Origin: Pristiophorus japonicus
Lineage: Eukaryota
Reading direction: 5' to 3'
DNA length: 64,000 nt
Assembly: GCF_044704955.1 (NCBI RefSeq)
Contig: NC_091985.1
Location: 42,036,001-42,100,000 of the forward strand
The translations under genes were made by a program, and so were the position numbers. Below, one piece after another: positions 1-28,600 of this stretch. A model generated the notes under the pieces. That model was not told the DNA's origin and did not search any database. It was given only the letters and a program-made list of their open reading frames with translations. How positions within the stretch are numbered: position 1 is the stretch's first letter; each line of letters begins with the position of its first letter.

Positions 1-126
1 AAGGGGTATGGAGAGAAAGCAGGAAAGGGGTACTGAGATGAATGATTAGCCATGATCTTATTGAATGGTGGTGCAGGCTCGAAGGGCCGAATGGCCTACT
101 CCTGCACCTATTTTCTATGTTTTTAT
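1..126 (+). mobile_element. CR1 LINE 3' end
   Basis: Contains AAGGGGTATGGAGAGAAAGCAGG...GGCCGAATGGCCTACTCCTGCACCTATTTTCTATGT, the same 3' UTR and (TTTCTATG)n tail as the CR1 copies ending at 15480, 38569 and 44049. Confidence 0.9.
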
Positions 127-346
127 TTGCTTCACGGGTTCTTTGCTTAAGAATTCATAGCAACACATTGCTATTAAGAACTAGTTGGTTTATTAATAAC
201 GGTTTAACAATCACACTACTCATTAGCAGTTCATCCACTAGGCATACCTCATCGTGGATGACCTAGGCCCAACTGACTGGGGTTTTATTGAGTTTTGTGA
301 ACACCATGTGCCTGGCTAAGCCACTCACAATGCAATAGCTCTACAA

Positions 347-1214
347 CTATTTTGTTGTAATCTGTAAAACATAAATCGTTAACTCAAATGCCCCCTGATT
401 AAAGTGGGGGGGGGGGGGTACTAAAACAGAAACTTTCAAACAAGTGCCCCCTTGTTTTTTGTTTATTTTTGTTTTGTTTTGAGGACACCAACACACAATT
501 TATACAAGTGCCCCCTGGCTAAAGGGGGGGGGGGGAGGGGAGCACTAAAACTGACACAATAAACAAATTAAATTTTGGACATTAATTCAAATCAAAATTT
601 GGTTGCCGGGGTTGATGATGCACTCCAGTCCCTCCGGCACCCACCTCTCGCGGAAGGCCGCGAGCGTACCGGTGGACACCGCGTGCTCCATCTCCAGGGA
701 CACCCTGGCTCGGATGTAACCGTGGAAGAGAGGCAGTCAGTCGAGCTGAACGACCCCCTCGACCGCCCGCTGCCTGGACCGGCTGATGGCCCCCTTGGCT
801 GTGCCCAGGAGCAGTCCTACGAGGAGGCTTTCCGACCTGCCCGCTCCCCTCCGCACAGGGTGCCCAAAGATCAGGAGGGTGGGAGTGATGTGCAACCAGA
901 ATTTGTGGAGCAGCTCCTTCAAATATTGGAATATGGGCTGCAACCTCACACATTCAATAAAAATGTGGAACACGGACTCTTCCAGACCGCAGAAATTGCA
1001 GGCGGCCTGGGAGTCTGTGAACAGACTTAAAAACTTATTGGACGGGACTGCTCCGTGCAACAGCCTCCAGGCCAAGTTCCCAATAAATAAAGGAGGACTT
1101 CCGTGTAGAGTGCACTCCGTTGGGGACCCCCGCCTCCTCCGGACGGCAAGATGGTGCGCCATGGCGCGTCCAGATGGCAGACGAGGAAGGCAACATGGAG
1201 AGTGTGCAAGAGCA
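347..1214 (-). mobile_element. Tx1-clade (L1 group) LINE, 5'-truncated: ORF2 C-terminus plus 3' UTR
   Basis: Translation gives LAWRLLHGAV...CNFCGLEESVFHIFIEC (CX2CX8HX4C knuckle typical of L1/Tx1 ORF2). Frameshift and stop are present. Flanked by target copies at 332-346 and 1215-1229. Confidence 0.85.
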
Positions 1215-1229
1215 GCAACAGCTCTACAA

Positions 1230-1507
1230 CTACTTTCATTGGAAAACAATAAATCAAGTGCCCCCTGATTAAAGGGGGGGACACACCAAACATTTTCAAA
1301 CAAGTGCCCCCTTGTTTTTTTTGTTTTTTTGGGAGGGTTTTTTTGAGGACACTGAAACACAAATTATACAAGTGCACCCTGGCTAAAAGCAGGAGGGGGG
1401 GGGGACTAATACCGGCAAATTAAACAAATTTAAATCCGCGATTGAACCAGGGAGCTTTAGCTCTTCAGTCTAAAGCTCTTCCAACTGAGCTAGTCCGGCC
1501 CGACAGC
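1230..1507 (-). mobile_element. SINE: tRNA-Phe-derived head plus Tx1 3'-UTR-derived tail (copy 1)
   Basis: Head is 1432-1499, preceded by an 8-nt leader GCTGTCGG. The tail has the same AAGTGCCCCC...GGGG stem-loop series as the Tx1 3' UTRs at 347-590 and 1522-1745. Flanked by target copies at 1215-1229 and 1508-1521. Confidence 0.8.
1432..1499 (-). pseudogene. tRNA-Phe(GAA)-derived sequence (SINE head)
   Basis: GCCGGACTAGCTCAGTTGGAAGAGCTTTAGACTGAAGAGCTAAAGCTCCCTGGTTCAATCGCGGATTT matches vertebrate tRNA-Phe at 59/68 by manual alignment. A and B boxes are intact; the 3' acceptor strand is incomplete. Confidence 0.85.
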
Positions 1508-1521
1508 GCAACAGCTCTACA

Positions 1522-2370
1522 GCTCTTTTGGGGAAAACATAATAAATTAAATCAAGTGCCCCCCGATCTGGGGGACACTCCAAACACTTTTCATGTGCCC
1601 TTTTTTTGTTTTTTTTTTTGGTGATTTTTGTGGGGTTTTTTGGGGCATTAAAATCATAATTTTTCAAGTGCCCCCTATAAAAGGGGAGGAGGACACTAAA
1701 AATCCGGCAATTAAACAAATTAAACTTTAAAACATGTAAAATCAAATTAAAATTTGGTTGCCGGGGGTGATGATGCACTCCAGTCCCTCCGGTGCCCACC
1801 TCTCGCGGAAGGCCGCGAGCGTACCGGTGGACACCGCGTGCTCCATCTCCAAGGACACCCTGGACCGGATGTAAGAGCAGAAGAGAGGCAGGCAGTCGAG
1901 CTGAACGACCCCCTCGACCACCCGCTGCCTGGACCGGCTGATGGCACCCTTGGCCGTGCCCAGGAGCAGTCCTACGAGGAGGCCCTCGGACCTACCCGCT
2001 CCCCTCCGCACAGGGTGCCCAAAGATCAGGAGTGTGGGACTGAAGTGTAACCAGAAATTGAGGAGCAGCCCCTTTAAATAATGAAACAGGGGCTGCAACC
2101 TCGCATACTCCATAAAAACGTGGAACACGGACTCCTCCAGACCGCAGAAATTGCAGGTGGCCTGGGAGCCCGTGAACCGACTTAAAAATTTATTGCACGG
2201 GACTGCTCCGTGCACCACCCTCCAGGCCAAGTCCCTGATAAATAGTGGGAGGACTCCTGCGTAGAGTGCACTCCATCGGGGACCCCCGCCTCCTCCGGAC
2301 GGCAAGATGGTGCGCCATGGCGCGTCCAGATGGCAGACGAGGAAGGCAACGTGGAGAGTGTGCAGGAGCA
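1522..2370 (-). mobile_element. Tx1-clade LINE, 5'-truncated (second copy, different 3' UTR)
   Basis: Open frame ...DLAWRVVHGAVPCNKFL...CNFCGLEESVFHVFMEY...NQILI* with stop at 1742. Flanked by target copies at 1508-1521 and 2371-2385. Confidence 0.85.
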
Positions 2371-2385
2371 GCAACAGCTCTACAA

Positions 2386-2661
2386 CTACTTTCATTGGAA
2401 AACAATAAATCAAGTGCCCCCTGATTAAAGCGGGGGACACACCAAACATTTTCAAACAAGTGCCCCCTTGTTTTTTTGTTTTTCTGGGAGGGTTTTTTTG
2501 AGGGCACTGAAACACAAATTATACAAGTGCACCCTGGCTAAAAGCAGGGGAGGGGGGCACTAAAACCGGCAAATTAAACAAATTTAAATCCGCGATTGAA
2601 CCAGGGAGTTTTAGCTCTTCAGTCTAAAGCTCTCCCAACTGAGCTAGTACGGCCCGACAGC
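2386..2661 (-). mobile_element. SINE: tRNA-Phe head plus Tx1 tail (copy 2)
   Basis: Near-identical to 1230-1507. Flanked by target copies at 2371-2385 and 2662-2676. Confidence 0.8.
2586..2653 (-). pseudogene. tRNA-Phe(GAA)-derived sequence (SINE head, copy 2)
   Basis: GCCGTACTAGCTCAGTTGGGAGAGCTTTAGACTGAAGAGCTAAAACTCCCTGGTTCAATCGCGGATTT; anticodon loop CTGAAGA. Confidence 0.85.
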
Positions 2662-2799
2662 GCAACAGCTCTACAAACCTGTGAGTATACCCAGAGGTGC
2701 ATACATTACACTATTGGTGCTGCAGAGCAAGCAGTAATCCAGAGTCAGAGGAATAGAGCATGTGATCTGGCATGTATGGTTGGAAAATGTTCCCCAGAT

Positions 2800-3500
2800 T
2801 GGAGGAACAGCGGAGTGAGGCCATGGAGGGATTTGAAGATGAAAGCAACAATCGTGAAATCAATTCACCAGAACACAGGGACTCTGTGGACTCTGGATAG
2901 AACAAGGGCGACAAGTGAGCAGGATTTGGTGTTGAAAAAAGATTTAGGTGGAAGAGTTGTGGATTAGCTGAAGTTTGTGATGGTGGAGTTTGGAAGACTG
3001 GAAGAGTACTGTTTGAGAAACCACAAGGAGACAGATGGAAGGAGATACAGGTAGAAATTGGAAATTATTTTTAATAAGGAACAGTAAATCTGTGGAATAG
3101 ATTCTAATAGAAAGTAATGAAAGCAATGATGATTAACTCATTTTAAAAAGATCCATATGAATAACCAGTTAAGAAAACAATTCTAGGCATAAGCGATCAA
3201 ATCCTATGGCTACCACAATGGCTCAACTGAGCCAGACAGACCAGGACAGTCGCAGGATTGAATCCCAATCTGTACTGTTAGGATCTTAGCTGAGGTGTTG
3301 GATGGCAGTTAGAGAGCTATAATTAGCCTCAGCAGCCCAGCTAATCCACAACTCTTTGGCAAGTCCTTTTCAACACCAAAGTCCTGCTCACTCATCACCC
3401 TTGATCTATCCAAAGTCCACAGACTCTTTGTGTTCCAGTGAATTGATTTCAAGATTGTTGCTTTCACCTTCAGGGCTTGGAAAATCACTCCGTGTTCCTG
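2800..3500. repeat. Imperfect inverted repeat pair (~2800-2970 and 3338-~3500), possibly L2-derived
   Basis: GAAGAGTTGTGGATTAGCTG pairs with CAGCTAATCCACAACTCTT. The opposite-strand translations are similar (KATIVKSIHQNTGTLWTLDR vs KATILKSIHWNTKSLWTLDR). Confidence 0.7.
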
Positions 3501-4934
3501 AACCTGGTCACTATCCAGCAACTCATGTCAGAAAGATTGTGTACGCAGACATCACAGCAGGATAGACGGGGCTTTGCCCGAATGAATGTCACAGTCGAAT
3601 AGCTTTCTATGGAAAGGAAATTCAGGCAGGATGTACAGTAGGTGGCACATCAGCTACCACTCATATTGCACCCCCGCCCCACCCTGTGTATATGTATCCT
3701 TGATCTTTCCGTTCCTCCTTCCAGTTAAGAATGCCCACATTGAGAATATACTGCTTTCATTGTTCTTTTTCACTAACAATGGTTTTTCACATCTGTCTAC
3801 AATGAACTGTATCTTCTATTTATCTGCGCACTTTGCTAACTATATGTCCTCTTACATTCTTCTGCATTCATTAAAATCTTTGCGGAGCACATGCCAACTC
3901 ATCACTCATGCACAAGCAATATTCAAAAGGCAATCTATCTTGATGGTCCGATGAATTTTTTGATAATATTCATGATTCAGCTCTGGCAGTAGAAATAAAC
4001 CAATTATTTGATCTTATGCATTCATAACCTTTCATCTTGTCTGCAGCATCATTTTAACTCCTGGACTGGAATGCGACAAAGCACGTGCAAAGAACGACCA
4101 TCAGGGAGGCTTGGCTGATTTTAAAGTTTGGGCCTCCTTAGCACCCTGCTTGCTAACTTCCTGACCAAAACAGCAGGGAAGTTGGTGGGAAGCAGCTGCC
4201 CTTCTGTTAAATGGCAGGAGGCCACTGCCAGGAAGGGTCTCTGGAACAGGTAAATGCTTCAGGAGGGGAATCCCAGTTAGGGGAGGGGGGTGGGGGGGAA
4301 GCCCGGGGCAGGGGAAGTCCATTTTCTTGTGGGGCCAGAGGAGTACGTTTGGCCTCAGGGGAGGTGGAGGCGAAAAGCCATAACTCTTTCCCCCCCTCCC
4401 TCAGCTTAAAATAGCCAATGATATAATTGCCGCCTGATCTGCTTATTTAAAAAGGTCCCCTTCCAGTTTGGAGCGATTGTCCTTGCCGTCTACAATTTAA
4501 AATTGCAGTTGGCCAGATCAAGGTGGGAAAGGAGTGGATAAATCTCTTGCTCCATTTTGTGGTTTTCGCGAGTTAAAATCGACCCCTATGTGTTTTCATT
4601 TATCTCAGATGTACTTAATCTGATTTTTTAAACATGTATTTTCCTCCTCTTAAATCGGCTTCTTTTCTAACTCAGTTTTGTCTCATTAGTGAACACTTTT
4701 CTCAGTTCACCAGCTATGTAAGAATAAAAGTGTTTAGTAATGATAACATTGATTCTGTATATATAAATGTTAAAAGTGTAGATTATACGAAAAGACAAGT
4801 TTGAAGAAACAAAATGGAAAACTTCCCCAAGCCTATGTGTTCTCTGGCTGGGCAGACCCAAGGAACAAAGGAAACATGGCTTTAAAACTCATCAAACTAG
4901 AAAAGGTGTTAATTGGAAAGCCATTAACATAGTC

Positions 4935-5798
4935 AGGAAAACTTGCTTCCACTCTTAGCATGAGTTCTTAGGTGGCTGTACAGTCCAATACGAGAACCAC
5001 AGTCTCTGTCACAGGTGGAACAGACAATGGTTGAAGGAAAGGGTGGGTGGGACTGGTTTGCCGCACGCTCTTTCTGCTGCCTGCGCTTGATTTCTGCATT
5101 TTCTCGACGACGAGACTCGAGGTGCTCAGCGCCCTCTTGGATGCACTTCCTCCATTTAGGGTGATCTTTGGCCAGGGACTCCCAGGTGTCAGTGGGGATG
5201 TTGCACTTTATCAGGGAGGCTTTGAGAGTGTCCTTGTAACGTTTCCGCTGCCCTCCTTTGGCTCGTTTGCTGTGAAGGAGTTCTGAGTAGAGAGTTTGCT
5301 TTGGGAGTTTCGTGTCTGGCCTGCCCAGCAGAGCTGGTCAAGTGTGGTCAGTGCTTCAATGCTGGGGATGTTGACCTGAACGAGGACGTTAACGTTGGTG
5401 CATTTGTCTTCCCAGGGGATTTGTAGGATCTTGCGGAGACATCATTGGTGGTATTTCTCCAGCGATGTGAGGTGTCTACTGTACATGGTCCATGTTTCTG
5501 AGCCATACAGGAGGGCGGGTATTACGACAGCCCTGTAGACCATGAGCTTGATGGCAGTTTTGAGGGCCTGATCTTCAAACACTCTTTTCCTCAGGCGGCC
5601 GAAGGTTGCACTGGGGCACTGGAGGCGGTGTTGGATCTTGTCGTCGATGCCTGCTCTTGTTGATAGGAGGCTCCCGAGATAAGGGAAGTGGTCACGTTGT
5701 CCAGGACCGCACCATGGATCTTGATGACTGGGGGGCAGTGCTGTGGAGGACCTTTGTCTTACTGATGTTTAGCGTAAGGTCCATGCTTTCGTACGCCT
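4935..5798 (-). mobile_element. RTE-clade LINE fragment (RT C-terminal region and 3' end)
   Basis: Same sequence as the RTE copies at 45623 and 50845 (GACTTGCTTCCACTC...GGCCAGGGACTCCCAGGTGTCAGTGG). The minus-strand translation fits an RTE RT C-terminus. Confidence 0.85.
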
Positions 5799-6109
5799 AT
5801 TATTCAAGATGGCTGCCGGGGTGGCAGTTCCCTCGGGAGCTCCCCTGCCGAATCAACTTTACCTTGCCATTCGACAACTATCCATCCTCAACCTCCCCCC
5901 TCCCGCTGTCTGAACTCCCCCTAGACCTAACAGACCCTAATAGAGGGTGCATAAATCCCTGCCTTAAACCCCTAATCCTGCGAATCCCAAAATCCGGGCC
6001 TATCTCAGGCCTCGCTCCAAGCAACCCATCGGCGATGACTCGGACGTCCGGAAAGTCATTAACCTAATCAAGAAACGGCACCGGCCCTCCAGACAGACAC
6101 ATGTATGAG

Positions 6110-6195
6110 GAAAAGCCAATTAGGAACGGCCCTGGAACCAAGACCCAATCCTGGGGCTTTCTGAGAAACAATGGACTTAAGGGATATAAAAACTC
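6110..6195 (+). promoter_or_regulatory. LTR U3 promoter elements (CCAAT and TATA)
   Basis: GCCAAT at 6115-6120 and GATATAAAAA at 6183-6192 inside the solo LTR. Activity is not shown. Confidence 0.45.
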
Positions 6196-7394
6196 AAGCG
6201 AAAAGATTGCTGCGTCTCTCTTTTCTTTAGCACACGGCAAAAGCAGGACCTTTCTCTACAGACCAAGAAACAGGCCGTATGCTTTACCAGAGGGAAGTGA
6301 AATATACCTTTTTGTACCTTTTTGTAAAGTATTATTGTAACATCATTGTATCTGTTGTAACTAAGTAGATCCGTAGGTTAGCTGACGACTGCTGTTTTTC
6401 TGATAGATGTGCATGTGTGTGTGTTTAATAAACTATTCCAAAATGTTGTTAAAAGAACCGGTCTTACTGTCGATTTAATGCCAGAGATTTAGAAATCTTA
6501 CAGCTACTGGTATGCATCTATGATCACAGCATAGAAATCAGCCAGGGCTTTTAATCATGATAACCACAGAGTGGAGATAACAGTGAGGCAGATGGGCCAT
6601 TAAAGTAACTGACATAAAAGAAGAGTAAAGGAGCATCAGGTTAGAACACTGTACTCTTAGCTCTGGAATTTTGTTGCATATCCAGCCTAGACAGATGGTA
6701 ACAGAATCTCTTCTCTCCACTTGCTGTATAACTCCTAAGTAAAATGAGTTTTGGGCAATCTCACAGGGTTCCTATTGGGAGTGAGTTCACACTTTAGAAT
6801 TCACCACTAATTAACACTAAGTTGGGAGTGTCATGCAGGGAAACTGCTGAGATAGCTGCTATGGAAAATGGGAACTGTCGAGCCATTAGGGGGCATTCTT
6901 CTGAGACTGGAATTGGGATGCATTGTGGAGCAGTGCAGAGGAAGCTTGCTCCCCATGTCTTATCAAACCAGTTGGTATGAACAAGGATCATTCAAGAAGA
7001 TCACCTCATTTCGCCCTCTCAGGTTGCATGACAAGTAGGCATCCCAGCTTTCCTTGAAACTCAGATCACGATTACACAAGTAAAAGCATGGTTTTGGGGC
7101 ATCATGTGTTGTAAGTATAACTACGCAGCATCCATGGACAGGTCAGTGGTACTCCAAATTTCAGAGGAAGCCAGAGGACCCAGACTGTTCAGGTCATATA
7201 GCCTGGACATCTACCTACCAACACCTGACTTAGCAATTCAGCAATAGATTATACTGATAGCTAGAGATAGGGTGGCACCAATGCATAAAGTTATCGCGTG
7301 CATTTGTATTTTCCCATATTGAGTCAGCTTCCATTTAGTTTGTTTCTTGCAATATTGGCAAAGTTGACACAGTAAGAGCCACTTTGGATTCAGT

Positions 7395-7850
7395 AAAAGA
7401 AAGACTTGCATTTATATAGCGCCTTTCATGACCACCGGACATCTCAAAGCATTTTACAGCCGATGAAGTACTTTTGGAGTGTAGTTCTAATGTGGGAAAC
7501 GTGGCAGCCAATTTGCACATAGCATGCTCCCACAAACAGCAATGTGATAATGACCAGATAATCTGTTTTTGCTTTGTTGATTGGGGGATAAATATTGGCC
7601 AGGACACCAGGGATAACTCTCCTGCTCTTCTTTGAAACAATGCCATGGGATCTTTTACATCCACCTGAGAGAGCAATTGGGGCCTCGGTTTAACATCTGA
7701 TCCAAAAGATGGCACCTCCAAAGTGCAGTCCCTCAGTACTGCACTGGAGTGACAGCCTAGATTTATGTGCTCAAGTCTCTGGAGTGGGACTTGAACCCAC
7801 AACCTTCTGACTCAGAGACAAGTGTGTTACCCACTGAACCACAGCTGACA
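7395..7850 (-). mobile_element. DeuSINE-type (SacSINE1-like) tRNA SINE, full length
   Basis: tRNA-like head (GTGGTTCAGTGG...GGTTCAAGTCCC), Deu-domain-like core (GCAGCCAATTTGCAC...CCCACAAACAGCAATG on the plus strand) and tail GGCGCTATATAAATGCAAGTCTTTC. Confidence 0.8.
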
Positions 7851-25600: not shown

Positions 25601-28600
25601 AAGAGGGGACAGAGTGTAGTGTAACAAAATTTGCAGATGACACAAAGATTAGTGGGAAAGCGGGTTGTGTAGAGGACACAGAGAGGCTGCAAAGAGATTT
25701 AGATAGGTTAAGCGAATGGGCTACGGTTTGGCAGATGGAATACAATGTCGGAAAATGTAAGGTCATCCACCTTGGAAAAAAAAAACAGTAAAAGGGAATA
25801 TTATTTGAATGGGGAGAAATTACAACATGCTGCGGTGCAGAGGGACCTGGGGGTCCTTGTGCATGAATCCCAAAAAGTTAGTTTGCAGGTGCAGCAGGTA
25901 ATCAGGAAGGCGAATGGAATGTTGGCCTTCATTGTGAGAGGGATTGAGTACAAAAGCAGGGAGATCCTGCTGCAACTGTACAGGGTATTGGTGAGGCCGC
26001 ACCTGGAGTACTGCGTGCAGTTTTGGTCACCTTACTTAAGGAAGGATATACTAGCTTTGGAGGGGGTACAGAGACGCTTTACTAGGCTGATTCCGGAGAT
26101 GAGGGGGTTACCTTATGATGATAGATTGAGTAGACTGGGTCTTTACTCGTTGGAGTTCAGAAGGATGAGGGGTGATCTTATAGAAACATTTAAAATAATG
26201 AAAGGGATAGACAAGATCGAGGCAGAGAGATTGTTTCCACTGGTCGGGGAGACTAGAACTAGGGGGCACAGCCTCAAAATATGGGGGAGCCAATTTAAAA
26301 CCGAGCTGAGAAGGAATTTCTTCTCCCAGAGGGTTGTGAATCTGTGGAATTCTCTGCCCAAGGAAGCAGTTGAGGCTTGCTCATTGAATGTATTCAAATC
26401 ACAGATAGATAGATTTTTAACCAATAAGGGAATTAAGGGTTATGGGAAGCGGGCGGGTAAGTGGAGCCGAGTCCACGGCCAGATCAGCCATGATCTTGTT
26501 GAATGGCGGAGCAGGCCCGAGGGGCTAGGTGGCCTACTCCTGTTCCTAATTCTTATGTTCTTATATTCTTGCTGACTTTGACGTCTGTATTCGACACGAT
26601 TATTCAAATCAGGTTGGACAAGAGAGAGCCTGGTCTTGAGACCTCTCCATCAATAGTTCAGCAGGGGAGACCCCGGTAAGCGTATGGGGTCTTGTCCTGT
26701 AACTGAGCAATATGCATGACAAGCGAGTTTGCAGTGAACCTTGAGTTACACGTTTCATACTCTGCTTCATGGTTTGGACTGCACGCTCTGCTTATCCATT
26801 GGATGCGGGTTTGAATGGTGCTGACCTCACATGTTTGATACCATTGAGTTTCATGAACTCTTGAAACTCCATACTGGTGAAGCAAGATCCGTTGTCAATT
26901 ACAACGATGTCAGGCAGACCATGCGTAGCAAACATGACACGAAGGCTCTCAATGGTAGCTGTGGATGTGCTGGATGACAGGATTGTACACTCTATCCACT
27001 TGGAATAAGCATCCACCACAACTAAGAATATCTTTCCCAGGAAGGGACCTGCAAAGTCGATGTGGATCCTGCACCATGGTTTGGATGGCCACGACTGCAG
27101 ACTCAGCGGCGATTCCGCTGGTGCTTTACTAAGCTGCATGCAAGTGTTGCGCTGATGCACACGTGATTCCAGATCAGAGTCAATTCCAGGCCACCATGCA
27201 TGAGACCTGGCAATGGCTTTCATCATGACAATACCAGGATGCGTGCTATGTAGATCATGCATAAAATTCTCTCTGCCTTTCTTGGGCATAACAACACGAT
27301 TACCCCACAATATACAATCTGATTGAATGGATAGTTCATCTTTGCGACGGATGTAAGGTTTGGTCTCCTCACACATTTGCTTGGGTATGGCAGACCAATC
27401 ACCACTAAGGATACAACGTTTCACAACCGATAATATCGGGTCCTGGCTGATCCAGGTCTTAACTTGTTGGGCCGTGACAGGGGTTCCTTCTCTTTCAAAA
27501 GCATCCATGACTAACAGTAGGTTCGCCGGTTGTGGCGTTTCCACCTCCGGTGTGGACAACGGCAGATGGCTCAATGCATTGGCACAATTCTCAGTGCCAG
27601 GTCTATGGCGAATGACATAATCTCAGGCAGATAATGTCAGCATCCACCTCTGGATGCGGGATGATGCATTGGTATTGATGCCTTTGTTTTCCGAAAACAA
27701 TGAAATGAGTGGCTTGTGATCTGTTTCCAGTTCAAACCGAAGACCAAACAGGTACTGATGCATCTTTTTAACCCCATACACATAGGCTAGTGCTTCTTTC
27801 TCTACCATGCTGTAGGCTCTTTCCACCTTTGACAAACTTTTTGAAGCATATGCAACAGATTGTAATTTGCCCGACATTAGCTTGTTGGAGCACGCAACCA
27901 ACTCCATATGATGAAGCATTACAGGTCAATACTAGACGCTTACATGGATCATAATGTACCAGCAGCTTGTTGGAGCAAAGCAAATTAGTAGTTTTCTCAA
28001 AAGCTCTACCTTGAGATGCACCCCAAACCCAGTTGTCGCCTTTTATTAGCAGCATGTGTAGTGGATCTAATAAGGTGCTCAATCTAGGTAAGAAATTACC
28101 GAAGTAGTTGAGTAGACCAAGGAACGAACGCAGCTCCGTCACATTCTGAGGTGCCATGAAGATGCACTTCTAGTGTTTCAGTCTGAGTCCCACTTTGTCC
28201 AGACAATGCAGAACCTTTTCCAGGTTGTTCAGATGTTCGGCGGAGTCACAACCTGTGACCAGTATGTCATCTTGTAACATGACGGTTCTGGGGACAGACT
28301 TCAGTAGTGTTCCTCTGAAATATGGCTGCAGCCGAGCGAATTCCCAAAGAGCACCTGTTGTAGATAAACAGTCCTTTAATGAGTGTTGATGCACGTAAGT
28401 TTCTTCGACATGTCGACCAGCTCCTGTGTCATGAAGGCCGACGTCAGATCCAGTTTTGTGAATGACTTACCCCCCGGCTAGCATTGCACACAGGTCATCA
28501 GCTTTCGGTAACGGGTATTGATCCTGTTTCGAAACTCGGTTGATCGTAACCTTGTCGTCTCCACAAATCCTGACAGTGCCATCACTTTTCAACATGGGAA

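Follow-up and report, generated by a model that had tools for sequence, protein, structure and literature searches.

A Tx1 3' UTR headed by a pre-tRNA-Phe fragment within a Tx1 target site of Pristiophorus japonicus: likely a single retrocopy, likely duplicated on the spot

Chimeric retrocopies in which a small RNA is joined to the 3' part of a LINE are known for U6. In U6/LINE retrocopies (U6/L1, U6/L2, U6/RTE), as the accessible text of PMC4476161 and PMC6789731 describes them, a sense Pol III RNA ending in a U-run lies 5' of a variably truncated LINE, a single pair of target duplications encloses the whole, and every copy is an independent event. The element described here is of the same known kind, a LINE/small-RNA chimeric retrocopy, in a variant form made with Tx1 and pre-tRNA: a sense small RNA lies directly 5' of a truncated LINE within one pair of target duplications. 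It differs from the U6 retrocopies in that its partner is a Tx1 with a fixed target, and most heads found at this target are unprocessed pre-tRNAs; they belong to many kinds, retain leaders, trailers and introns, and in some cases are followed by 5S or U6. Human tRNA/LINE-1 chimeras also carry a tRNA inserted along with a LINE 3' end. The 21 loci in the accessible text of bioRxiv 10.1101/2025.02.02.635956, which mentions neither Tx1 nor pre-tRNA, are mostly antisense tRNA halves, whereas near-whole or whole precursors in sense are found here, in a search confined to sense heads. Mammalian tailless and pre-tRNA retropseudogenes (Schmitz 2004, as cited in parts of PMC4476161 and PMC3747384) likewise result from a LINE enzyme copying tRNA precursors and include 3'-truncated tRNAs; unlike the present element they carry no LINE tail.

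Two kinds of SINE are also comparable. SINEU/Tx1-Mar of crocodilians, according to the accessible text of PMC4494074, use Tx1 machinery and targets within other transposons (two families favour LTR elements), form tandem copies split by the target duplication, and have repeatedly gained small-RNA sequence at the 5' end. All of this resembles the present locus, but SINEU are amplified families whose copy numbers range from ~100 to 7,700, whose heads come from U1/U2 and whose 3' end is common to no LINE. The present element, in contrast, consists of two linked copies with a plain Tx1 tail, and its 3' end is common to its partner LINE Tx1. The tRNA SINEs HE1/HER1, SacSINE1 and SINE2-1_CM also join a tRNA head to a LINE 3' end, but are dispersed multi-copy shark families with CR1-type partners; a Tx1 partner was not found among the tRNA SINE/LINE pairs tabulated in the accessible part of PMC3747384. 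A search of the main texts of mostly open-access papers returned no report of pre-tRNA/Tx1 chimeras or of whole sense-strand pre-tRNA capture by Tx1; a prior description is possible. A search on Tx1, shark and target specificity also returned nothing.

The window, that is, the whole 64,000-nt stretch of DNA analysed, holds two copies of the chimera on the minus strand (Table 1). As the preliminary description recorded, each copy consists of an 8-nt leader (GCTGTCGG in both), tRNA-Phe(GAA) positions 1-68 and ~200 nt of Tx1 3' UTR, and the second copy (2386-2661) is present with leader, head and tail. The copies differ by 9 substitutions in 278 columns. Along the minus strand the order is host repeat 5' part, target, copy 2, target, Tx1 fragment b, target, copy 1, target, Tx1 fragment a, target, host repeat 3' part. 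The target-site copies that flank the chimeras measure 14-15 nt and lie inside a putative solo LTR. Two further target-like motifs (up to 2 mismatches) occur on the minus strand near 28010 and 50020, with no Tx1 adjoining.

Table 1. Features of the chimera array, in positions of the window.
Feature	Position	Strand	Evidence or remark
pre-tRNA-Phe 5' leader, copy 1 (-8 to -1)	1500..1507	-	identical before tRNA-Phe genes L106/L107; independent Phe chimera L080 also begins at -8
tRNA-Phe(GAA) positions 1-68, copy 1	1432..1499	-	8 substitutions including B-box C61G; TTT end
Tx1 3' UTR, copy 1	1230..1431	-	spans ~15-20 nt past ORF2 stop to 3' end
pre-tRNA-Phe 5' leader, copy 2	2654..2661	-	same 8 nt as before tRNA-Phe genes L106/L107
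tRNA-Phe positions 1-68, copy 2	2586..2653	-	8 substitutions including C61G
Tx1 3' UTR, copy 2	2386..2585	-	83-90% identity to Tx1 UTRs elsewhere
target-site copy (TTGTAGAGCTGTTGC), upstream of copy 2	2662..2676	-	sequence
target-site copy, copy 2 / Tx1 fragment b boundary	2371..2385	-	sequence
target-site copy, Tx1 fragment b / copy 1 boundary	1508..1521	-	sequence
target-site copy, copy 1 / Tx1 fragment a boundary	1215..1229	-	sequence
target-site copy, 1 mismatch, array 3' end	332..346	-	sequence
Tx1 fragment b, 5'-truncated, ORF2 C-terminus + 3' UTR	1522..2370	-	hybrid: first ~100 nt common with fragment a, remainder another copy
Tx1 fragment a, 5'-truncated	347..1214	-	5' junction as in b; 3' UTR differs
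putative host solo LTR (~270 bp, holds Tx1 target), 5' part	2677..2710	-	boundary 2710 from loose read ends; 5-bp flanking duplication at relatives
putative host solo LTR, 3' part	124..331	-	boundary at 124

In each copy, 60 of the 68 head positions agree with real tRNA-Phe genes, and the window head ends in TTT. The 8-nt leader occurs unchanged ahead of the two ARAGORN-called tRNA-Phe genes L106 and L107, 7 of its 8 nt match ahead of the tRNA-Phe genes of the tandem arrays L033-L060, and the unrelated Phe chimera L080 begins at the same -8. On sequence comparison the leader is evidently a retained pre-tRNA leader, in agreement with the preliminary description, which had raised this and proposed comparing it with the upstream flanks of tRNA-Phe genes. 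In contig C30 of the genome (G000; 16.99-17.11 Mb) and in contig C3740, tRNA-Phe and tRNA-Glu genes form long tandem arrays that repeat every ~2.3 kb.

The A and B boxes had been described as intact. Judged by the letters, the A box is kept in both copies, but the B box is altered in both by C61G; C61 is known as an invariant base of tRNAs. Because of this change the window copies are absent from the results of the B-box pattern search. The Rfam score of the head is 17.6 bits, under the gathering score of 29; ARAGORN called no tRNA in the 64-kb window, and Rfam found none in positions 1-4000. T4 runs occur in the tail, twice in copy 1 and three times in copy 2. The element is probably dead as a SINE because of C61G and the internal T4 runs. 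In the head of copy 2, six of the eight substitutions against real tRNA-Phe genes are transversions. The tail differs from its kin at 2 of 175 informative sites, a biased comparison, which is less than the 8/68 of the head; seven chimera heads average ~11% divergence, against ~6% for Tx1 bodies. The head substitutions were considered as marks of modified bases (G26, U39, G46), an idea that was dropped since the pattern fails across other Phe chimeras.

The tail is Tx1 3' UTR, as first described, but its homology is not chiefly to the neighbouring elements. Identity to the two neighbouring Tx1 UTRs is just 73-76%, against 83-90% to Tx1 UTRs elsewhere, and thus the tail was not derived from the neighbours. 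Among 20 loci fetched by an ORF2 stretch, the partner was recovered as elements of ~7.2 kb whose ORF1 has a zinc knuckle and whose ORF2 encodes endonuclease and RT. Its domains are zf-CCHC (a weak match below the cut-off), Exo_endo_phos and RVT_1, and over the RT region the identity to Xenopus Tx1 ORF2 (YTX2; E 7.5e-176) is 60%. By this similarity the partner LINE evidently belongs to the Tx1 clade; an exact-identity lookup of its ORF2 in a protein collection gave no match. The Tx1 fragments of the window encode the ORF2 C-terminus and show 86-89% alignment identity to the ~7.2-kb element.

The same target motif is found at the 3' ends of most Tx1 copies fetched. The repeat that hosts it is ~270 bp long with TG...CA inverted ends, and we infer that it is a solo LTR because a 5-bp flanking duplication with at most 1 mismatch is present in 24 of the 38 loci having both ends (exact in 12). 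A sister Tx1 subfamily (L172-L177, L179, L180, L182, L183, L185, L186, L188), of which many copies are full length, has another target, mostly at one site on the antisense strand of a LINE-like repeat.

The element had been proposed as an undescribed SINE family. The genome does not bear this out, since the junction of head and tail occurs at only two linked places in 5.9 Gb. A whole-element search of the 5.9-Gb genome gave 41 matches: 2 are full-length, and 39 start no earlier than position 75, in the tail only (best 40 of 3853 candidates scored). At the 28 tail-only loci fetched, the upstream DNA is more Tx1 or the target site, never tRNA. In a search with head plus junction, 2 of 40 matches are the window copies and the other 38 match positions 2-76 only (best 40 of 355 candidates). 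The genome-wide count and the test for a fixed junction that had been suggested gave the same answer: a junction 24-mer with up to 2 mismatches, and a 27-mer with up to 3 mismatches in which tRNA-gene bases were also allowed, each found only the two window copies (control 0 in both), the scope being assembled copies with at most 3 junction mismatches. In DNA run X1, which may be from the source sample, contig depth, a rough guide only, is 14.7 at the junction, 6.67 in the unique flank and ~80,000 in the tail; the junction depth agrees with two copies only. Runs X5-X7 had no coverage of the head, from which nothing follows. What was found is thus what the preliminary description had named as grounds for abandoning a family, a one-off chimera later duplicated, the second copy being a local duplication together with neighbouring Tx1 DNA. 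Its picture of a Tx1-mobilised, site-specific SINE holds for the Tx1 tail and for the Tx1 target with target duplications, but not for the SINE family, there being two linked copies only. The element is a pre-tRNA/Tx1 chimeric retrocopy and not a SINE family.

It is very improbable that the two copies represent a genuine tRNA-Phe/Tx1 SINE, extinct or of very low copy number, with a Pol III master copy retrotransposed twice by Tx1. Such a SINE would share the layout seen here, each of the two copies does lie between target sites, and Tx1-mobilised SINEs are known from SINEU (accessible text of PMC4494074). A third copy, however, was found neither by the genome junction searches nor from the depth of run X1, and C61G and the T4 runs speak against a master copy. 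Both copies are also followed by the same Tx1 truncation point and by shared derived bases, which independent insertions would not give. Kojima's test, as set out in the accessible text of PMC4494074, takes many parent LINEs sharing a 3' end as a sign of independent switches rather than of a SINE, and it tells against a SINE here.

How the chimera came to be present twice can be read from the Tx1 fragments. Fragments a and b begin at the same base and are identical at 96 of 100 positions at the 5' end, with four shared derived bases within the first 51 nt and one in the middle; identity is 476/531 in the middle and 159/257 in the UTR, the behaviour of unrelated copies. Since they are alike for 100 nt and then unrelated, a single block made up of the chimera, the target and ~100 nt of Tx1 has been copied and joined to the 3' part of another Tx1. 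From this structure the second copy is evidently a local duplication that took in ~100 nt of the next Tx1 fragment. Such sharing recurs in other arrays: of 40 pairs of adjacent units, 12 have a common 5' junction, whereas of 2278 cross-locus pairs only 12 do (all parsed loci; duplicate loci, the window's own and tRNA arrays left out); at loci picked solely by UTR likeness the figure for adjacent pairs is 8 of 13. Two other chimeras are doubled like the window one (L086/87, L128/129), and L006 has an A-B-A'-B' layout in which a two-unit block is repeated as in the window. Adjacent Tx1 units with a common 5' truncation point and differing 3' UTRs were seen at L004, L015, L019, L023, L028, L030 and L006.

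The duplication likely arose when another Tx1 was later inserted into the target copy upstream: the new cDNA would have paired with the resident fragment 50-100 nt from the fragment's 5' end and continued along the chromosome, copying the resident 5' end, the target site and the chimera, which would have produced the hybrid structure that is seen. R1 arrays grow at the 5' target copy, according to the accessible text of PMC2718515, where copying of a neighbour's junction is not described. For the duplication step only, an alternative is unequal crossover between an allele with an additional Tx1 upstream and one without it, which is rather unlikely. It would yield exactly the same hybrid fragment b and order of parts, but about one third of adjacent pairs would call for it, one array (L028) as many as three times, and the partners would be short pieces 85-90% identical. 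The shared 5' junctions caution against counting the tandem copies of a site-specific LINE array as independent insertions.

The target holds other fusions of this kind. A pattern of target plus A box gave 39 matches (control 0); target plus both boxes gave 291 against 40 in the control, and a stricter form 73 against 2. The matches comprise resident SINE heads, empty LTRs, chance matches and tRNA-like heads. Tx1-target loci with tRNA-like heads number 41 besides the window, chosen by eye with linked duplicates counted once, two of them from a B-box-then-UTR pattern. That pattern was rejected as an above-chance signal (2 matches against 3 in the reversed control); both matches (L063, L064) are tRNA/Tx1 fusions on inspection. 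Rfam matched tRNA above the gathering score in 22 of 40 tested heads and 5S in 3, with a weak U6 match in L143 (E 0.03). Relaxed ARAGORN found a tRNA in 33 of 42 loci, window included, and introns of 16-19 nt in L116, L143 and L157; its long-intron calls were discarded as artefacts. The heads are of many tRNA kinds and carry leaders, trailers and introns; their isotype names are partly our own reading of the sequences.

BLAST-detectable Tx1 is joined in 29 of these 42 loci (28/41 without the window), and of the other 13, 11 have a short Tx1-type terminus at the end and 2 do not. The 25 clear junctions, with four dropped where the first piece was missed or the head unidentified, fall at 20 different Tx1 positions. 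TTT stands at the join in 16 of the 25 against a background of 5.2%, with the window copy scored as a miss because the BLAST alignment ran into its TTT. Six chimeras with different heads (L142, L157, L158, L159, L162, L164) join Tx1 at ruler position 6803, near the ORF2 end, where none of 25 plain Tx1 truncations starts. The Phe chimeras of the window, L080 and L098 all stop at tRNA position 68 and join Tx1 at three positions (ruler 6908, 6864 and 6859), as is seen for independent events among LINE chimeras, and the leaders and Tx1 junctions of other tRNA-Phe/Tx1 fusions differ from the window's. L099, a fourth Phe chimera, has a whole tRNA with trailer, then 5S.

Chains of Pol III RNAs occur within one target pair at L084, L099, L134, L143, L097 and L164: tRNA+5S (three), tRNA+U6, and tRNA+tRNA (two). 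Some chains end in only a few bases of the Tx1 3' end. Several heads come from divergent tRNA-like transcripts, either Gln-like with an altered acceptor stem (L139-L141, L145, L156, L158-L160) or Gly-like (L115, L142, L144) and Ile-like (L126, L146, L163) with long shared 3' extensions, which suggests source Pol III genes or SINEs. As SINE families these groups were rejected, since no two loci agree in both head end and Tx1 junction; the closest pair, L158/L159, has a common leader and Tx1 position and a differing head end. At L065, L073, L083, L088, L094, L102, L148 and L149, the Tx1 target is immediately followed by a resident tRNA SINE that continues into Tx1 or U6 sequence, so capture extends to SINE RNAs. 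At L167 the Tx1 UTR is fused to a ~120-nt head that shows a T-run and motifs resembling the A and B boxes. Because only 5 of the 13 tRNA loci from the target plus A box pattern recur in the stricter two-box pattern, the true number of such fusions is likely of the order of a hundred.

Taken together, we are confident in reading the element as a fusion of a pre-tRNA-Phe fragment with a Tx1 3' UTR in a Tx1 target, likely made once by a jump of the Tx1 RT and likely later duplicated on the spot by Tx1 insertion. In this mechanism Tx1 ORF2 would nick the target in the solo LTR and reverse-transcribe ~200 nt of Tx1 3' UTR; the enzyme would then jump onto a tRNA-Phe precursor with its 3' end at the U-run U66-U68 and copy it up to the transcription start at -8. 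Against it stand the join, which lacks clean microhomology and has one extra A relative to most Tx1 copies, and the greater divergence of the head than of the tail. R2-type enzymes add untemplated bases and jump on one base of pairing (accessible text of PMC8594491) and capture U6 in cells (that of PMC11371274); U6 chimeras are described with several LINE clades, L1, L2 and RTE (that of PMC4476161).

For the jump step only, it is possible but rather doubtful that the same one-off chimera was joined as RNA before reverse transcription, with an RtcB-type ligase linking a precursor that ends in U to a cleaved Tx1 RNA; for U6/L1 such joining is shown in the accessible text of PMC6789731. The U-run at the join in the 16 of 25 chimeras would suit ligation, intron-bearing precursors encounter tRNA ligase, and one Tx1 position is joined by 6/25 chimeras against 0/25 plain truncations (Fisher p=0.022, post hoc), a preference that RNA cleavage and ligation fit equally well. 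Primary Pol III ends, however, are 3'-OH, whereas RtcB requires a cyclic or 3' phosphate, and the chains of tRNA+5S, tRNA+U6 and tRNA+tRNA fit serial template jumping. Hardly any weight is given to a separate tRNA retrocopy beside an existing truncated Tx1, or to DNA recombination fusing a tRNA gene to Tx1. Arrays here do grow through repeated insertion, but head and tail have no target copy between them, the head begins at -8 like that of the independent chimera L080, without the gene's upstream flank, and dozens of heads have the same orientation and position.

Alone, the element is a dead-end retrocopy and minor; the class of fusions and the junction copying matter more. That tRNA SINEs originate by LINE template switching onto a tRNA is a long-standing proposal (accessible text of PMC4476161), and the dozens of pre-tRNA/Tx1 fusions at one target likely show how SINEs begin. 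A wider reading, held tentatively and with slightly more doubt than belief, is that this Tx1 family serves as a SINE nursery not described before. It would routinely, and often serially, capture whole nascent Pol III transcripts, namely pre-tRNAs (with leader, intron and trailer), 5S, U6 and SINE RNAs, and would have left on the order of a hundred independent proto-SINEs at one target. As part of the same tentative reading, new cDNAs would copy a resident neighbour's 5' junction during insertion, a duplication route of which no description was found in the literature. With dozens of first-step products at one fixed site, jump versus ligation, the choice of RNA and the lack of amplification become directly testable. 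If the nursery reading is true, this genome would record the start and end points of pre-tRNAs and each step of SINE birth short of amplification.
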